DNA from: an uncultured Verrucomicrobiae bacterium
GTDB taxonomy: Bacteria; Verrucomicrobiota; Verrucomicrobiia; Limisphaerales; Palsa-1400
DNA length: 64,000 bases
Direction of reading: 5' to 3'
NCBI GenBank assembly: GCA_963707025.1
Contig: CAVPOM010000008.1
Span: 32,001-96,000, forward strand
Positions 39,001 to 50,962 of this stretch are shown here, one piece after another. A program made the position numbers. Position 1 is the first letter of the stretch. Each line of letters begins with the position of its first letter.

Positions 39001-42000
39001 TCGCGAATGGCGCGGGCGCACAGCTTCGGGCGCTTCTTGGGCACCTTGGCGTAATTCACCGCCACGATCACCGTCGGCACGCGGATTGGACCGCGGACGG
39101 TTCGCACCGCATTGTCCTGCGGGCGCATGGGCAGCGTAATCCACTCGTCCCAGGAAACGGGACGAATGTGATTTTCCCCTTCGATTTCCAGGCCGGTCGC
39201 CACGTTCGTCGCCATCATGCAGAAGGCCTCCTGCGGCGTCCGGACGTTGACGGCCTGCCAGTTGCGGTTGAGCACCAGCACCATCGCTTTGTTCAGTATG
39301 TCGTTCATAAAAATGTCTGCATACGGCCACCGTGCTTGTCGCGGCGGGGTGTTTGTTCTTTGTTGAGGCATCCCCGGCGGCGAGATCGAGACGCTTCCTG
39401 AGCATCATTCCGTGTCCAGCCCAGACGAGCGTGCTTCCGGCTGGCCTTCGGCACGTTTTTCGCGCATTTTGGGATTGAAGCGTTCGAATTCTGGAGAAAA
39501 TCATGAGACCTTACGTGATCTGCCACATGTGTACGACGATCGACGGTAAAATCCTGGGCGATCGTTGGGGCAAACTTCCCGGCTGCAAAGACAGCGCCAC
39601 GCTCTTCGAAACCACGGCGGCCAGCTTTGGCATCGGCGCCTGGCTTGTGGGCACGACTACGATGAAAGAATTTGCCGGGCGAAACGTGAAACTGCCCCCC
39701 GCCAGGAAACCGGTCGTTCATCGGGACCACATTGCCGACAAAAATGCCAGGCGACTGGCGATCGGTGTGGATGCGAAGGGCGTTTTGCGCTTCCAAGAGA
39801 ACGAAGTGGACGGCGATCATGTGGTCCTGCTTATCACCGATCGTGTCGGTGACGATTACCTGGCGCACCTCCAGGCCGCCGGCGTCTCCTATCTCTTCTG
39901 CGGCCAGAAGGAAGTGGACCTGCACGTTGCCCTTGGCAAGCTGGGCAGCAGTTTTCATCTACGCAAGCTGATGCTCCAGGGCGGTGGAAAGTTCAACGGC
40001 GCCATGCTCCACGCCGGGCTTGTCGATGAAATCAGCCACGTCACCGTGCCAGTCGCCGACGGCGGCGTTGGCATCTCGAGCTTTTTCGACATTCCCGGCA
40101 ACCCGCCGCCCAAATCCGCTGCCACTCTCCGCCTCCTGTCGTGGAAACGACTGCCAGGCAGCGTGACGTGGCTGCGCTACCGCGTCGTCGTTAAGCATAC
40201 GCGCTGACCGCGGAGCAGGCCGCTGTAATACGCCCGTCGCGCAGCAGACATTCCTTGGTCGGGTTGGCTTGCGGAAATTGGCTGCCTCGCCCGGTTTTGC
40301 TCCAGGTCCTCCGGTGTCAGAGACCGGCGCGCTCCTGATTACGCCACGAGGCAATGGCCCGCCGAGCGGCAGCCCGGAGGGAGAAGATTGGTCGCCCGGG
40401 GAGGTTCTGCCCCTCCGATTTCTGGGTGTAGGCCAGACGTGATGCTATTTCACCACCGGGCGGAAATTGGCTGCGGGAGCCGGGTTCGCACCGACAACTG
40501 CGCTTTCAAAGAGCGCCGAGTTGCTGGTTACTCCATCCCGCAACAAAATGGTGGAGCCGGAGGTAGTTGCAACCTCACCATACCGGATTAAAAGTCCGGT
40601 GCCGGTCTTCTGTGGCATCAGCTCCAGGAAATTGGTGCTCGCGGTGGGGCTTGGGAAACTCCAATAATCACCAAAGGGAAACCGGCGCGGCCGGCATCCC
40701 AGATTCCCTTTGCCTCCGTTTCCGATCCTGCGGGTGTTGGTAAATGTTGGAGTCGCGATTGCGCACCCGCGCACTGGCACTCAAGCGGCCTCTGCGCACA
40801 CAAGCCAGGCCGATTCCTTGAAAAGTTTTCAGTTAAATTGCATCAAAAAAGCTGGCAAAATGGTGTCGTTCACCCTATATTTACACACATAAATGCATCA
40901 CCAGATGACATCCGAAAAGCGGCAGTGGCCGACGCTCGAAGGACGCTTGAGTCAGCCGCTCACTTCACGCGTGGAGGCGGTGCGCCAGCTCCAGACCACG
41001 ATGCCGATTACGCCTGTCGCGCAGGCCGTGTTGAAGCGGAGCAACGGCACCTCATCCAATGGGCCAAAGAAAACGGGAAACTAGGCTCAAGCGGTCGGTT
41101 GCCGCCCGTGTTTGCTCAGGGTGGAGAGCATGATGTCTTTTTTCAAAAATGCACCCAGCGGTATCTCAAGGCGACACGGCAGGATCGACACAAGGGATAC
41201 GGCATTGCCCTCGGTTCGCACACGCACGGTGCAACCCCTGCCGAGTATCTCGACCGTCTCTTCCTTCAGAACTGCATTTTCGATGATGATATTCGGCTTG
41301 AGCGCGTCGTGCAGAACGATGGCAAACCCATAATTATCACATCCCAACCAGCCATCAAAGGAAGCACCCCACGGCAAGACGGACTGGACGAATTGATGAT
41401 CGGGAAGGGCTACGAAAAACTGGCAGAAGGGGCTTATTACGATGAAGGGGCCGGCCTATTGCTGTACGACCTTTTCCCTCGCAACGCCATCCAAGCTGCC
41501 GACGGACATATTTATCCCATTGATCCCGTCATCCAACGCATTACGCCGGACTTTGGGCAGTTTTTGCGGCATGAGCCTTACACGATCGACCTCCCCCGCT
41601 AAACCCTTCATGCTGCGCACTCGTCTGCGGATTGGGCAAGCGGACTTATTGCGTCCGACTTATTGCGTCACCTTCCGCAATGATAATCGGGTCCGGTAAC
41701 GCCCAGGAACCCGACGCTCATCTAGCGTGACGCTGTGGATAAAACTGCTCACTTTGAGCTACATGCGCGAAAATGGCGGAATGCCGTGGACTTGCACCAC
41801 ACTCCTGTTTCCAGGAGCGCACTGTTTAGCGAACAGGCCCGGGCCCCTCGTCCGGTTGGCATTCCAGATTGGTCGGCGTGGGGAGACTTGCACTCCCAAG
41901 GCTGTTCGATCTTGAGTCGAACCGGTCTGCTATTCCCGATTAACCACACGCCGGTCGGCGACCCGGGACTTGCACCCGGAAGGCTCGGCGATTTTAAGTC

Positions 42001-48000: not shown

Positions 48001-50962
48001 TCGAAATTGGTCAGGAAGCCGGGATTTGCACCCGGACCGTCGCGTTCACAACGCGGAATGCTGCTGTTACACCACAATCCTGATTTGAAATGGAGCCCCT
48101 GGTCGGACTCGCACCGACGAATACGAGTTTACGAAACTCGCCCTGTGGCTGCTGAGGCACAGGGGCACAATGGTGTCCACGGCAGGAATCGCGCCTGCGA
48201 CCTCCACCTTCGCGCGGTGGCGCTCTGATCTAACTGAGCTACGCGGACAATTGGCATCCGTGATCGGACTTTCACCGATTAGGCCCGGCTTGAAAGACCG
48301 GCTGCTCGATCTGCTTTGCATTCACGGACAGGATGGCCGCTGGAGTCGGAATTGCGCCGACACTTCCTGTGCTTCAAGCAGGTGTGCAGACTGACTACAC
48401 CATCCAGCGGGCAAAGCGGTGCGCGGCAGCTTGGGTCAGCTACCTTGAAGGGCTGTCTAAGAAGCTTGAGCCTTGCGGGCTGCGGCTTGCATTTTGAACG
48501 AGCTGACCGATGTGGTTTGACAACTCGGCATCAACATCAGCAGGTAATTGGATTTTCGGTCCAATAAGGAACGTTTAGAGCGCTCCAGATTTTGACAGCG
48601 TGCTCCATCGGCGGCATTCCGCCACCACCGCGCACCTGAATCAGAACCGCTGGCGGAATCAAGGATTCACGCTGCGGGTGAAGTTGAACTCGTCCAGCGC
48701 ATCTTGCAGCGACTGAATTTCGGCGTTCAACTCGGTGACAAGTTTGTCCACGTCCACCTTGCCGAGCTGGGCGACATATTCGACCTCGTAGCTTGCATCG
48801 GCAAAACCGCGTCCTTCGTGGAAAACGCCGGCCTTGGTGTCCAGCGCGTTCAACGTGGTGGCCAGACCCTTGAGTTCCGCCAGCCGGAAAATCCGGTCGT
48901 AGATTTCCACGTTGGCGGCCGCGACGGCGGCCTTGACCTTGACCAATTCGTCGAGCTTAACGCGCAGGCGCGTCAAGACTTCGCGATTGTCGTAGTCGAA
49001 CTTCTGTTTAGTGGAACGGGAGTTTTGTTTGGTGAGCAGATCCTTCAACTGGGCGACTTCGCCGGCCAGTTGGTTTTTCATTTTAAGTGCTTTGGCGATT
49101 TTCATTGGATACCTTTCATTGGTTGCGTGTGTTTGATCGAATGAGTTGGTCGTCCCGGCAGGTAACGCTCCTGCTTCTTCCGGTTATCGACCGGAGGCTC
49201 TGCTTTTGAGCTACGAGACGGTGGTTAATTGAGGCTTCACGCCAAAACGATGCGCGGGGCGGAACACAAGATTGAGCTTCGTGGTCGGGCGGATTCGAAT
49301 GCCACGTTTTGGCTTGTAGCTTCGACGAAAAGGGCATTGACTTTGATGCCGCATTATGGGTTTCACGGGATTTCCTTTCGTTGAGGGTTAAAACTGGCGG
49401 ATGGTGTAGGGATCGCACCCACGCAGCCCGCAGGCTCACTCGGTTTTCAGGACCGGGGCATTACTTCTCTGCCAACCATCCGTACAAATTGGCTGCCAGA
49501 CTTGGACTCGCACCAAGACAAGCGGCTTAACAGGCCACCGTGCTACTTTGACACCACCTGGCAATGGCGCTGCCGGCAGGATTCTCACCTGCATCTATCC
49601 GCTTAGAAGACGGATGCCTGATTTGTTCGGCCACGGCAGCGTTGAAATGGTCGGAATGGCAGGATTTTCACCTGCGGCCTCCCGGTCCCAAGCCGGGTGC
49701 TCTAAAGACTGAGCTACATTCCGTGAAAAATGGCGGACCCGAAGGGAGTTGCACCCTCAACCCTCCCGCAGACAACGGGGCGCTCTGCTGATTGAGCTAC
49801 GGATCCGAAATGGTGGGAAGTGCTGGTAATGCTCCAGTCGTCGCTTCCGACATGTTTTGAGACGTCCGGGTTACGGCCGGATTGCCGGATCACTTCCCTG
49901 AGATTGGTAGCGGGGGTGGGAGTTGCGCCCACGGAGGCTGAGCTTATGGGGCTCGCCTGAATCTCATTCTCCCCGCAGTGAAATGGTGGAGTCGGTGGGT
50001 AGCGCGCCCACATCAACCTGCTTGCAGGGCAGGTGCATTGCTTGTCTGCCACGACCCCGGAAAATGGCAGGCTGCCTCCGTGCTGCCCGGAGTAAGCTGA
50101 GTTTTGGAGACTCGGCCGCGTGCTGACGCTCAGCCTGTGCATGAATGGTGCGGCTGCCGGGAGTTGCGCCCGGACTTCCTCCATGGCGAGGAGATATTCT
50201 GCTGCTTAAATCACAGCCGCGAAAGTAAAAGGGCCGGGAGCGTTCAGGCTCCCGGCCCATGCCATTTCAACAAAGAACAAACACCTCTTGGTGATCTATG
50301 CGATCCCAACCCGCGGTTTCACGGCGGCTGTTTCGGTGTTTAGGGGCACACCTCCTGCGAAGCCCTTGATATGTAAATCTAAAATTCGTCTCGCTCGTCT
50401 TGATGACGCTGTCTTCCGGTCATGGGCAGACCCCACCGGTGAGGCTTCTCTGCTCGTCCTCGCCAAATTCAAGTTGTCGCCAGAAGACATCACCTGGATG
50501 TCGCTTTGTTCTTGTTCACAGATTGTCCGTCTTTCGTCGTCACTCGTTCACATTCATGGTGTTCAGGAAAAATAAAAAACCCTGCTTGCATTTCGGCAAG
50601 CAGGGTGGAAAAAATTCTGTTTCGTTCGTTACCTGCTTGCCATGAGTCTATCCAACTTGACCTGTTGTTCCGACGCGGTCCTGGATAGGCTAAGGCTAAA
50701 CACACTACCCGGGTTATACCGGCTATGACGTGTCCCAATGGTCATTGGGGCCGTCGTAATCGGCCAACTCGTGGCTGATATGTTTAAGCAAGTTTTCATT
50801 GAACTTATGCGAAAGCTATCATGGCGTGTTCATGTCGTCAACTACTATTTGAAAATATTTTGAGATTTATTTATTTCTCTCGAATTCAAGTATCGGATTA
50901 GTTGATTTGAGATTCTGCGGCAGCGTCAATCGGGAATCAAATACCACTCGTGACTGCGATCA

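Follow-up and report, generated by a model that had tools for sequence, protein, structure and literature searches.

A long array of tRNA genes with a G55/A18 elbow in a verrucomicrobial RNA-repair island

The elbow contact between U55 and G18 is a near-universal feature of tRNA; the array tRNAs described here carry G55 and A18 instead. Long arrays of accessory tRNA genes (L-arrays) are a known kind of operon. For the trn operon of Anabaena, 23 of 26 tRNAs were found to be charged in vivo and present on polysomes, and tRNA-Ile(GAU), its single G55-type unit, is listed as giving a charged band; the same authors raised a sponge role for such tRNAs (PMC8421152). The staphylococcal non-proteinogenic (NP) tRNA-Gly of cell-wall synthesis lacks both G18-G19 and U55 and is described as charged and excluded from translation (PMC4574755, PMC13443448), the exclusion being ascribed there to weak EF-Tu determinants rather than to position 55. 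Riboswitch T-loops of the form YGNRA hold an intercalated adenosine, and a GGAAG flavor exists in rRNA (bioRxiv 10.1101/2022.12.26.521914).

Layout of the island

The window, a 64-kb stretch of contig C8 from a 6.96-Mb genome of 18 contigs that was scanned in full, carries on its minus strand, between 33.4 and 50.8 kb, an accessory tRNA operon of the L-array kind, part of an RNA-repair island that is probably phage-derived. Along this strand, a structured leader with terminators is followed by about 26 tRNA genes, an HNH endonuclease, an Upx-like gene, and RtcB (Table 1), with the array broken up by a Ro60 gene, 4–6 Y RNAs, and several inserted genes. ARAGORN called 11 of the tRNAs (40468–49806, all minus strand), and Rfam RF00005 gave 13 matches at the gathering score and 18 of at least 29 bits in E-value mode. 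A strict cloverleaf scan of all 18 contigs, requiring perfect 7-bp acceptor and 5-bp T stems with T-loop and CCA unconstrained, returned 196 matches. The observation of the genome-wide survey's note was confirmed: in three islands (C8 72282–82220, equal to window 40282–50220; C2 106468–112733; C4 150761–153986), the second T-loop base (position 55) of every match was G, and no D-loop contained GG. Chromosomal tRNAs were TTCRANT with a GG D-loop, so their description as canonical held with one exception, a tRNA-Glu(CUC) at C7:240635–240706 (T-loop TGCGATT) that was the only G55, GG-less unit beyond the islands. The encoded CCA reported for island tRNAs is present in chromosomal tRNAs too. Combining a relaxed scan, ARAGORN, Rfam, reading, and folding, we count about 26 units in the window, four of them irregular, and at least 19 and 8 in the C2 and C4 islands, compared with the 23, 21, and 10 given earlier. 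Among the irregular units, unit X has a possible GUA (Tyr) anticodon hairpin and no clear D-arm, leaving its isotype uncertain, and the C2 and C4 copies of the tRNA-Arg(UCG)-like unit have 7-nt anticodon loops in the relaxed scan.

Table 1. Features of the island, in window positions.
Feature	Position	Strand	Evidence
Leader domain 1, conserved structured RNA ending in intrinsic terminator 1 (stem 50579–50606)	50574..50805	-	alignment, terminator call
Leader domain 2, conserved non-coding block ending in intrinsic terminator 2 (stem 50231–50258)	50225..50573	-	alignment, terminator call
tRNA-Gly(GCC), T-loop CGCAACT, C33	50149..50220	-	Rfam E-value mode, strict and relaxed scans
tRNA-Ala(UGC), G3:U70, T-loop CGCGCTA, C33	49987..50058	-	strict and relaxed scans
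tRNA-Met(CAU)-like, irregular, T-loop CGCAACT, C33	49905..49976	-	missed by scanners; read and folded
Irregular tRNA-like unit X, 8-bp acceptor stem, T-loop AGCATTA, CCA end	49811..49898	-	read and folded
tRNA-Asp(GUC), T-loop TGCAACT, D-loop AATCAGCA	49734..49806	-	ARAGORN, Rfam, strict and relaxed scans
tRNA-Pro(UGG), T-loop TGAAAAT (A56), D-loop AGTCTTTA (U19)	49651..49723	-	ARAGORN, Rfam, relaxed scan
tRNA-Arg(UCU), T-loop TGAGAAT	49568..49640	-	ARAGORN, Rfam, relaxed scan
tRNA-Asn(GUU), T-loop TGCGAGT	49493..49563	-	ARAGORN, Rfam, relaxed scan
tRNA-Ser(UGA), long variable arm, T-loop TGCGATC, C33	49398..49481	-	ARAGORN, Rfam, relaxed scan
tRNA-Ile(GAU), T-loop AGCGTTA (A54-U58 flavor), C33	49150..49220	-	Rfam E-value mode, strict and relaxed scans
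148-aa ORF inside array, weakly DIP1984-family	48659..49105	-	NCBIfam NF038048, E 6.6e-5, below cut-off
tRNA-Phe(GAA), T-loop CGCAATT	48337..48409	-	Rfam, strict and relaxed scans
tRNA-Glu(UUC), T-loop TGAAAGT	48255..48329	-	strict and relaxed scans
tRNA-Arg(GCG), T-loop CGCGATT, C33	48174..48248	-	ARAGORN, Rfam, relaxed scan
tRNA-Thr(CGU), T-loop TGCGAGT	48094..48166	-	ARAGORN, Rfam, relaxed scan
tRNA-His(GUG), T-loop TGCAAAT	48008..48082	-	ARAGORN, Rfam, folding
Cluster of 4–6 YrlA-like Y RNA units	46966..48004	-	Rfam sub-threshold matches
Small SEC-C-motif ORF, stop inside motif (apparent 1-nt insertion)	47113..47394	-	Pfam SEC-C, 13/19 positions at ORF end
Ro60/Rsr gene (TROVE and Ro60 vWA)	45128..46906	-	Pfam E 1e-47 and 1.9e-49
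Calcineurin-like metallophosphoesterase	44353..45099	-	Pfam
tRNA-Cys(GCA), T-loop TGCGCCC	44276..44347	-	ARAGORN, Rfam E-value mode, relaxed scan
SIR2-family gene, strand opposite to array	43184..44269	+	Pfam
tRNA-Lys(CUU)-like, T-loop TGCAATT, imperfect anticodon stem	43118..43192	-	read from sequence; C2 orthologue clean
Short-chain dehydrogenase (SDR), frameshift giving two overlapping frames	42283..43110	+	Pfam
tRNA-Arg(UCG)-like, 8-nt anticodon loop, one acceptor mismatch, T-loop TGAGAGT	42136..42209	-	ARAGORN, Rfam, folding
tRNA-Leu(CAG), long variable arm, T-loop TGCAAGT	42042..42125	-	Rfam, folding
tRNA-Leu(UAA), T-loop TGCAAGT, without clean CCA	41954..42035	-	read and folded
tRNA-Leu(CAA), T-loop TGCAAGT	41873..41953	-	Rfam E-value mode, folding
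tRNA-Ser(GCU), long variable arm, T-loop TGCAAGT, C33	41774..41865	-	relaxed scan, folding
Kinase-PolyVal-domain gene, opposite strand, insertion	40838..41602	+	Pfam, reading
tRNA-Lys(UUU), T-loop TGCAACT	40552..40625	-	strict and relaxed scans
tRNA-Gln(UUG), T-loop TGCGAAC	40471..40542	-	ARAGORN, Rfam, relaxed scan
tRNA-Val(UAC), T-loop GGCAGAA (G54-G58 flavor), C33	40392..40462	-	Rfam E-value mode, strict and relaxed scans
tRNA-Gln(CUG), T-loop AGCAAAA	40282..40353	-	Rfam, strict and relaxed scans
HNH endonuclease, array-associated homing-type	38724..39371	-	Pfam HNH_4, E 8.2e-9
Upx-like anti-phage protein gene, between array and RtcB	34951..38700	-	NCBIfam NF042954, E 7.5e-165
RtcB RNA ligase gene, downstream of array	33426..34985	-	Pfam RtcB 286.8 bits

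Leader domain 1 is conserved in 12 loci (consensus fold of 44 pairs, five with compensatory changes) and had no Rfam match at E≤1. Its 5′ strand, antiterminator strand, and terminator vie for the same sequence, and terminator 2 lies directly before the first tRNA; the leader may gate transcription of the array through its terminators and competing helices. Ro60 carries a 1-nt frameshift 21 codons before the orthologous stop, as judged from the frames of two other array loci (L067 and L045). This frameshift and those in the SEC-C ORF and the SDR gene indicate that the window copy may be decaying or that the assembly has indel errors. The Y RNA region matched YrlA at 47608–47720 (43.4 bits) and 47364–47462 (39.8 bits; cut-off 69), and the Deinococcus Y RNA at 47864–48004 (38.8 bits; cut-off 80). 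Its permuted tRNA-like modules (47640–47693, 47506–47559, and 47384–47436) have canonical elbows, with TTCRA T-loops and GG D-loops; across loci, such modules were TTCRA in 29 of 39 cases, 27 of those 29 having GG. Homologues of the SEC-C ORF adjoin Ro60 in seven loci, homologues of the DIP1984-like ORF occur in three other array loci, and a copy of the SIR2-family gene is common to the window and C2 islands. A 5′ tRNA fragment (~41757–41780) adjoins the Kinase-PolyVal gene. The HNH gene lies out of frame within an apparent 1517-aa ORF, and its region has array-adjacent matches in 20 locus rows, which represent 18 distinct contigs. The Upx-like gene scored 550 bits against a curated cut-off of 1900.

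Elbow and identity of the array tRNAs

Elbow statistics were compiled from 888 distinct CCA-ending units of this genome and other loci, 783 with G55 and 96 with U55, the G55 enrichment being partly by construction because loci were collected with a pattern demanding three UGMRA T-loops. A GG D-loop was present in 75 of the 783 G55 units; among the 96 U55 units, which came from the same loci, 91 had it. Positions 18/55, 19/56, and 54/58 covary across the G55 set, which bears out the A18-G55 and 19-56 covariation proposed earlier. G19 is offered in 654/710 C56 units vs 9/73 units lacking C56, U19 is offered in 34/42 A56 units, and the 54/58 combinations are UA (542), AU (76), CA (56), GG (52), CC (25), and AA (18). 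G53-C61 is intact in 777 units and R57 in 782. Twelve unit pairs of at least 80% identity have one U55 and one G55 member, mostly with a GG/AG swap at the same D-loop position (L043 vs L015, 90% identity). In this elbow A18 takes the place of G18, whose intercalating role it is expected to fill, and 19-56 persists as a covarying Watson-Crick pair.

The tRNA bodies retain their cloverleaf, anticodon set, and synthetase identity marks, in agreement with the earlier claim of near-complete sets. All 20 amino acids are covered among distinct G55 units, with several isoacceptors each; G3:U70 is present in 27/27 Ala units; and the discriminator base goes with the isotype (Asp G 30/30, Asn G 36/36, Cys U 39/39, Leu A 90/90). 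R37 is found in 751/783 units. The claim that all anticodon loops are canonical failed, with C33 replacing the U-turn uridine in 147/783 units (19%). Over 162 orthologue pairs, 417 double changes in stems keep the pair vs 6 that break it, and tRNA units are alignable between genomes while spacers are not. Judged from these sequence patterns, the array tRNAs are selected tRNAs with a rewired elbow. That the arrays are decaying and without present function, as the window's frameshifts, tRNA fragment, 8-nt anticodon loop, and opposite-strand insertions might suggest, is most improbable given the compensatory changes, the conserved G53-C61, R37, and discriminators, and the unit-wise alignability.

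Spread and possible roles

Within the phylum, a sample of 401 genomes contained arrays in 6. On viral contigs, arrays of 26–35 G55 units have portal, major head, and TROVE genes as neighbors. Many array loci come from MAG contigs, and mis-binning may have given some of these a wrong taxon label. The patchy distribution supports the earlier view of a horizontally spread class of long arrays. Neighbors at 44 array loci include TROVE/Ro60 in 19, RtcB in 15, at least one of these two in 29, and, as judged by clustering, HNH in 8. The proposed link to Ro60 is borne out across loci, with the corrections that RtcB is about as frequent and that only one of the three islands here has Ro60; in the C2 island, 35 bp from the 3′ end of the gene are left. 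The stand-alone tRNA-Glu(CUC), also of G55/A18 type, is the only tRNA-Glu(CUC) of its genome; it was identical in 11/11 relatives' loci fetched, and a search of 41 genomes, its own among them, gave a match in 36, making it a core tRNA of this design that is conserved across the order. The conservation of this tRNA and the charging of Anabaena tRNA-Ile(GAU) are evidence that a G55 tRNA can work.

The reading we prefer, with confidence near the midpoint, is that the array supplies a working spare tRNA pool bearing a G55/A18 self-mark within a phage-derived RNA-repair island. The tRNAs would fold into the normal L-shape; the leader would permit read-through, probably when the cell suffers translation stress or RNA damage; and the transcripts would be processed, charged by host synthetases, and used in translation, alongside repair by RtcB and quality control by Ro60 and Y RNA. 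The elbow, on this reading a self-mark inherited from phages, would free them from dependence on proteins that read U54, U55, or G18 and hide them from these proteins; in the trivial case, pseudouridine 55 is impossible in a G55 tRNA. Points against this reading are the frequent C33, the 8-nt anticodon loop, the four irregular window units, the window's frameshifts, the almost wholly canonical Anabaena array, a staphylococcal G55-type tRNA-Gly kept from translation, and the G55 tRNA among the core genes, which argues that such an elbow does not by itself mark a tRNA as foreign.

It is also possible, if unlikely, that G55/A18 is an equally good elbow that was fixed in a single lineage of phages or arrays and hitch-hikes, conferring neither evasion nor independence from modification. 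Both flavors stand side by side in 18 mixed arrays, and orthologues such as the U55/G55 pairs above differ in which flavor they have. The core tRNA-Glu(CUC) uses G55, and YGNRA is a common T-loop flavor. However, 20–35 genes are near-completely converted in many arrays while Y RNAs of the same loci are canonical, which suggests some reason for keeping the two elbows separate, and mixed arrays show an isotype bias (Ile G55 in 16 units, U55 in none). A decoy role, in which non-decoding array RNAs soak up tRNA-targeting nucleases (toxins or defense effectors) or signal damage, would fit the Anabaena authors' sponge proposal, the frequent C33 with the relaxed decoding demands it may reflect, and the adjoining Upx-like defense gene and RtcB. 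We regard it as quite unlikely, since a decoy needs neither isotype-specific discriminators, Ala G3:U70, nor a complete 20-amino-acid set, and the core tRNA-Glu(CUC), which shares this design, is conserved without a change. Very unlikely is a role as aminoacyl donors that are charged yet kept off the ribosome. The staphylococcal NP tRNA-Gly, whose genes our own pattern scan recovered (L033), is the model for it, but all 20 isotypes occur among the array units, the neighbor clusters of the arrays contain no recurring Fem-type or other aminoacyl-transferase gene, and the exclusion of NP tRNA-Gly is put down to weak EF-Tu determinants and not to position 55.

The G55/A18 elbow is a recurrent design, present in many bacteria and in large phages. 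No description of it for whole tRNA sets was found in the literature searched; for a single tRNA lacking U55 and G18-G19, the non-proteinogenic staphylococcal cell-wall tRNA-Gly is a precedent in print. The Anabaena L-array, the only one studied experimentally, differs in having canonical elbows except in tRNA-Ile(GAU). The T-loops of the array tRNAs, with U, C, A, or G54 paired to 58, G55, and R57, fit the YGNRA flavor of riboswitch T-loops.

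Elbow state and identity of the array tRNAs

ARAGORN called 11 tRNAs on the minus strand of the window (40468–49806), and the Rfam tRNA family RF00005 gave 13 matches at its gathering score and 18 of at least 29 bits in E-value mode, with alignments reading GGUGAAAAUCC and GGUGAGAAUCC opposite the consensus GGUUCgAaUCC. U55 and G18-G19 are regarded as near-universal tRNA nucleotides. Because a scanner built around the claim of their replacement was to be avoided, our own cloverleaf scan of all 18 contigs (6.96 Mb) left the T-loop and CCA unconstrained and required perfect 7-bp acceptor and 5-bp T stems together with parsable D and anticodon arms. 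It returned 196 hits. Every hit within the three islands (contig positions C8 72282–82220, C2 106468–112733 and C4 150761–153986) had G at T-loop position 2, that is, position 55, and a D-loop without GG, as the genome-wide survey's note had claimed for these islands; the conserved G18/G19/U55/C56 elbow of elongator tRNAs was not found in the island units. The chromosomal tRNAs, described in that note as canonical, indeed had the T-loop TTCRANT and a D-loop GG, but with one exception: the sole G55 unit outside the islands is a tRNA-Glu(CUC) on contig C7, scanned at 240635–240706. Encoded CCA had been put forward as an island trait as well, and is no hallmark of the islands because the chromosomal tRNAs of this genome likewise encode it.

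When the relaxed scan, ARAGORN, Rfam, reading and folding were combined, about 26 units were found in the window, of which 22 pass the cloverleaf scan. Four are irregular: a Met-like unit, one with an 8-bp acceptor, a Lys(CUU) unit whose anticodon stem is poor and an Arg(UCG) unit; the limits of five irregular units in the window were read by hand. In the unit with the 8-bp acceptor the D-arm is not clear, and a hairpin loop could present GUA (Tyr) with C33. The Arg(UCG) copies in the C2 and C4 islands have 7-nt anticodon loops, and the window unit has either decayed or decodes four bases.

Features of the window and of the core tRNA-Glu(CUC) locus (window positions unless a contig or locus is named)
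Feature	Position	Strand	Remarks
D-Tyr-tRNA deacylase gene	32416–32868	minus	directly downstream of RtcB, same strand
RtcB gene	33426–34985		downstream of array along the strand
Upx-like anti-phage gene	34951–38700		NF042954, E 7.5e-165, below curated cut-off
HNH endonuclease gene	38724–39371
Arg(UCG) unit	42136–42209	minus	8-nt anticodon loop and acceptor mismatch
Short-chain dehydrogenase (SDR) frameshift	42631–42812		single base
Ro60 frameshift	45199–45270		1 nt; 21 codons before orthologous stop; short homopolymer run
SEC-C motif ORF frameshift	47113–47130		single base; short homopolymer run
tRNA-like unit	49811–49898	minus	8-bp acceptor, 4-bp T stem, T-loop AGCATTA, CCA end
Leader	50225–50810	minus	~580 nt, non-coding, conserved; two intrinsic terminators
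Stand-alone tRNA-Glu(CUC)	C7:240632–240706 (fetched locus L185:2632–2706)		T-loop TGCGATT, D-loop ATCAGTTA

Other genomes were sampled with a pattern of three UGMRA-type T-arms spaced 60–90 nt, which matched at least 135 stretches in one-genome-per-species contigs and 47 in viral contigs. Because a pattern with C55, run as a control, likewise gave at least 121 stretches, the raw counts are no evidence, and only cloverleaf units were therefore counted. The control stretches were mostly tandem repeats: among the 121 listed, 59 had a self-shift identity of at least 0.9 and 31 contained a cloverleaf. About 22 of the control stretches among the matches listed are real U54-C55-C56 tRNAs with GG D-loops, a departure from U55 different from the G55 type. 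Triples of these tRNAs (TCCGAGT, GG D-loops) come mostly from MAGs labelled Bacilli or Tenericutes, at loci L205, L226, L239, L246, L247, L262, L270–L272 and others. The 55 short loci from the G55 pattern included 44 with a cloverleaf and 6 perfect repeats. The cyanobacterial locus L013 and several other cyanobacterial and Latescibacterota matches had no cloverleaf units and are probably repeats; L013 found no match in the plasmid collection. The resulting set comprised units that end in CCA and keep 19 or more of the 21 stem pairs; they come from the islands of this genome and from loci L003–L135, with identical sequences collapsed. It held 888 distinct units among the loci listed (G55 783, U55 96, A55 5, C55 4), three units per locus being G55 by construction of the pattern and the remaining ones free.

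Among these distinct G55 units, G53-C61 was kept in 777/783 and a purine at position 57 in 782/783, and positions 54 and 58 co-varied (UA 542, AU 76, CA 56, GG 52, CC 25, AA 18). The D-loop carried AG without GG in 636 of the 783 and GG in 75, as against GG in 91 of the 96 U55 units from the same loci. C56 was present in 710 of the G55 units listed. A G was available at an allowed position 19 in 654/710 of the C56 units vs 9/73 of the units with another base at 56; the flexible numbering of the D-loop makes this test lean towards pairing, and the contrast between the two classes is independent of that flexibility. Among the loci listed, A56 units offered U at position 19 in 34 of 42 cases, with a D-loop AT instead of AG, and G56 units offered C in 18 of 27. 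Twelve pairs of near-identical units (80–90% identity, equal segment lengths) consist of one U55 and one G55 member, for example the type I tRNA-Leu of loci L043 and L015, and in most of them GG and AG are swapped at the same D-loop position. These pairs are the cleanest evidence for selection on the elbow. Together with the 19-56 contrast they bear out the note's proposal that A18-G55 and 19-56 covary. The alternative elbow is under selection.

All 20 amino acids were represented among the G55 units when the loci listed were taken together. G3:U70 was present in all 27 Ala units, and the discriminators of the G55 units were bound to isotype: Asp G 30/30, Asn G 36/36, Cys U 39/39, Leu A 90/90, Ile A 33/33 and Val A 37/37. 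Ser and Tyr units had long variable arms. The arrays carry complete isotype sets with identity marks, and the earlier description of a near-complete second tRNA set agrees with these counts. The anticodon loops, which had been called canonical, are not all so: R37 stands in 751/783 and U33 in 632 of the 783 G55 units among the loci listed, 147 have C33, and flips between U33 and C33 are frequent between orthologues. A short (type I) variable arm was found in 75 of the 90 Leu units, one example lying in the C4 island (L002 7843–8070; C4 150843–151070). C33 in place of U33 and the short-arm tRNA-Leu speak against a fully ordinary decoding role.

Window units were compared with units of other loci in 162 orthologue pairs; anticodon and G55 are fixed by construction here because the pairs were chosen for agreement in anticodon and in segment lengths. 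Two-sided stem changes kept pairing in 417 cases and broke it in 6, while one-sided changes kept it in 208 and lost it in 34. Pseudogene decay as a general explanation for the arrays was rejected on this stem compensation. Alignment between genomes holds for the tRNA units and the genes but fails for most spacers. Eighteen arrays mix the two elbow states (for example L023, L040, L139, L145, L152 and L172). Where G55 and U55 coexist in this way, the elbow state is biased by isotype, with G55/U55 counts of 16/0 for Ile, 10/2 for Cys, 13/3 for Val, 4/13 for Asn and 3/12 for Ser.

The stand-alone tRNA-Glu(CUC) with the G55/A18 elbow is the genome's only tRNA-Glu(CUC), and the other tRNA-Glu (UUC) has a canonical elbow. 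A 221-nt region around the gene was matched in 36 of 41 genomes (this genome and 40 family or order relatives), and the 75-nt gene itself was identical in all 11 of the relatives' loci fetched. About 47% of the Glu codons are GAG (30925 vs 34243 GAA, counted in long open frames with spurious frames included), and the host genome encodes TruB. Of the indirect signs that a G55/A18 elbow is accepted by the maturation and translation machinery of the host, this core tRNA is the strongest, and it weakens the idea that such an elbow is foreign in itself.

Islands, spread and neighbourhood

The C2 island is a diverged copy of the C8 island, collinear with it at 72–98% identity, the leader and the HNH region downstream being among the matching parts. 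The note had linked the arrays to Ro60; the gene is present in one of the three islands and was probably lost from the C2 island, where only a 35-bp remnant of its 3' end is left. In the window the array forms runs with 3–10-nt spacers that are broken by inserted genes, and it is interrupted by a 5' fragment of a tRNA and by four genes on the opposite strand. The frameshift in Ro60 leaves the C-terminal 21 residues out of frame. The breaks in the Ro60, SEC-C and SDR genes, the tRNA fragment and the inserted genes suggest either that this island is decaying or that the assembly contains indel errors.

The G55 pattern was matched by 6 of 401 sampled genomes of the phylum and the reversed control pattern by none. 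Viral contigs of 120–340 kb carry 26–35 G55 units, some without encoded CCA, and the viral arrays adjoin genes for portal, primase, major head and HNH proteins as well as TROVE proteins. Cases on long contigs outside the Verrucomicrobia include Kofleriaceae (L012 and L060, with Ro60 at 52–53% identity) and Gemmatimonadaceae (L010), although a MAG contig that holds mobile DNA may bear the wrong taxon label. Records derived from isolates are also among the matches, including Opitutaceae bacterium EW11 (L087) and Verrucomicrobium sp. BvORR034 (L116). Horizontal spread of the arrays, which the note had proposed, is supported by this patchiness, by their occurrence on viral contigs and by integrases in four loci.

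Neighbouring genes were clustered for 44 array loci of at least 5 kb with at least three G55 units, taking the array and 2.5 kb on each side and dropping overlapping loci. Among the loci listed, a TROVE/Ro60 homologue was found in 19, RtcB in 15 and either of them in 29, so that the proposed link between Ro60 and the arrays could be upheld; RlaP was present in 3, SPFH in 6, an integrase in 4 and HNH, by clustering, in 8. The HNH region of the window was matched in 20 locus rows from 18 distinct contigs. Several clusters of conserved ORFs beside arrays were dropped as translations of tRNA or leader DNA. An apparent 1517-aa ORF in the window (34951–39504) consists of the Upx-like gene and an out-of-frame read-through of the HNH gene.

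The Ro60 protein of the window has TROVE and vWA domains (Pfam E 1e-47 and 1.9e-49), and the gene is accompanied by four to six YrlA-like RNAs whose best scores, 43.4 and 39.8 bits, miss the YrlA gathering score of 69. Permuted T-arm, closed acceptor and D-arm modules are present in this Y RNA region. Across array loci a permissive scan for such modules gave 3493 mostly spurious matches and was tightened to 39 stringent modules, 29 of which have TTCRA, 27 of these 29 with GG. A few of the remaining modules are pairs of adjacent tRNAs. The Y RNA modules are canonical beside G55 tRNAs, and the same elements therefore carry tRNA-shaped RNAs of two kinds that differ in their elbow.

The leader precedes the array in 12 or more loci and had no match in Rfam. 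A 5' strand, an antiterminator strand and the terminator are rivals for one stretch of sequence, an arrangement that resembles an OFF-type riboswitch or attenuator. A leader-peptide attenuator was dropped in favour of a structured RNA because the variable parts of the leader are hairpins of changing length. The arrays lie in an RNA-repair and phage context, behind a terminator-bearing leader.

Possible roles of the arrays

We see an even chance that the array tRNAs are used as a spare tRNA pool. The tRNAs would be charged, and their transcription would be gated by stress, a point on which the leader with its two terminators bears. For charging and decoding, the Anabaena tRNA-Ile(GAU) and the conserved core tRNA-Glu(CUC) lend indirect support. 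It is doubtful, in our view, that the G55/A18 elbow is in addition a self-mark of an orthogonal, element-owned pool that a factor reading the canonical U55/G18 cannot bind. If it were, phages and the islands derived from them would carry complete tRNA sets beyond the reach of a canonical-elbow reader, and host tRNAs could be cleared, sequestered or damaged while the spare set sustained translation. Such a reader could be a host defence tRNase or toxin, or else the Ro60 and Y-RNA machinery of the element itself, with the Y RNAs deliberately keeping the canonical elbow. A Burkholderia CdiA toxin cleaves the T-loop; no nuclease reading the elbow was identified in the array loci studied here. We hold it just as doubtful that G55 is a neutral founder state, and the remaining, larger share of likelihood falls to G55 giving independence from modification.

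Use as a spare pool, if the tRNAs are charged and decode, would make the arrays a natural experiment on which machinery truly needs the canonical elbow, with TruB, TrmA, TrmH, RNase P, the CCA enzyme, EF-Tu, ribosomal elbow contacts and T-box leaders as candidates, and a ready scaffold for engineering orthogonal tRNAs. A self-mark would add a new axis to the phage-host conflict over tRNAs. The T-loop alternative occurs in tRNA sets that jointly cover 20 amino acids and in one vertically inherited core tRNA, and the G55-type elbow in hundreds of genes from several phyla and large phages. The link to Ro60, Y RNA and RtcB provides a concrete genomic partner for bacterial Ro60 and makes its tRNA connection testable.

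Comparison with known systems

G at T-loop position 2 has been described for riboswitches, whose T-loops follow YGNRA (UGNRA, CGNRA) and take up an intercalating adenosine between positions 4 and 5, next to a GGAAG flavour in rRNA and UUCRA in tRNA (bioRxiv 10.1101/2022.12.26.521914). Like the riboswitch type, the array loops have G as their second and a purine as their fourth base, with a non-canonical 1-5 pair, and the known UGNRA, CGNRA and GG..G variants all occur among array tRNAs. The loops of riboswitches find their receptors inside the same large RNA, according to that account, whereas the array flavour, here known from sequence, replaces the tRNA-type UUCRA/G18 contact inside tRNAs. 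The array units obey the sequence rules of a YGNRA-type T-loop, and the base that intercalates would be A18 instead of G18.

A printed precedent for tRNAs without G18-G19 and U55 is the non-proteinogenic staphylococcal tRNA-Gly(UCC) (PMC4574755, PMC13443448), and our scan recovered the Staphylococcus petrasii copies (L033) with T-loops TGCAA. As described there, this tRNA is charged by the normal synthetase, as would presumably hold for the array tRNAs, and is excluded from translation through weak EF-Tu determinants. Unlike the arrays with their 20 isotypes, it is a single isotype that serves peptidoglycan bridges; it has U18/C18-U19 in place of A18-G19 and a shortened anticodon loop, and it forms no mobile, full tRNA set. 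No Fem-like cluster was found among the neighbour clusters of the array loci listed.

YrlA-like RNAs have been reported next to Ro60 in many bacteria and phages (PMC4201824, PMC7790460). The published Ro60/YrlA/RtcB module (PMC4201824) resembles the one described here in its Ro60 gene with TROVE and vWA domains, adjacent permuted tRNA-like Y RNAs and a nearby RtcB. The module in the window, however, sits inside a 26-gene tRNA array, and its Y RNAs score below the YrlA cut-off (43.4 vs 69 bits) and adjoin tRNA genes with a different elbow. Phage tRNAs that evade tRNA-targeting defences (PMC10264068, PMC11555353) are alike in concept, being element-borne tRNAs that differ from those of the host at a site read by a nuclease, but as reported they do so through changes in the anticodon loop and the array tRNAs differ at the elbow.

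The closest relatives are the L-arrays, for which the accounts of Anabaena describe horizontal spread, HNH and rtcB neighbours and induction by translational stress (PMC8421152; PMC10272220) and among whose carrier phyla Verrucomicrobia are listed (PMC8421152). The window array packs some 26 units into 10 kb of one strand, against the 20 or so or more that mark an L-array, and HNH and rtcB genes nearby; its kind occurs patchily, in 6 of 401 genomes, in three diverged copies here, on viral contigs and with integrases in four loci. Like the trn operon of Anabaena PCC 7120, a long, same-strand, supernumerary and horizontally spread tRNA operon (PMC8421152), it has HNH endonuclease and rtcB as neighbouring or co-regulated genes, and type I tRNA-Leu is common to both. 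Regulation differs, being assigned to the TrcR repressor in Anabaena (PMC10272220), while the terminator-bearing leader is the candidate here. In Anabaena, 23 of 26 operon tRNAs are charged in vivo and operon tRNAs are found on polysomes, and Ile(GAU) is named among those with a charged, oddly migrating band (PMC8421152). All units parsed from that operon (NC_003273) have canonical TTCRA and GG except tRNA-Ile(GAU), with T-loop GGCAGTA and D-loop AAAAGTG, and we infer that this G55 gene encodes the charged Ile(GAU) of PMC8421152. The words G18, U55, T-loop, elbow, D-loop, Ro60, TROVE and Y RNA are absent from the main text of that paper, and no description of whole arrays or of a core elongator tRNA with G55/A18 was found in a literature search of main texts and passages. 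The Anabaena array is canonical but for one parsed unit, whereas here, as in most loci found, G55/A18 marks nearly all units. The window array is nonetheless of the known L-array kind.
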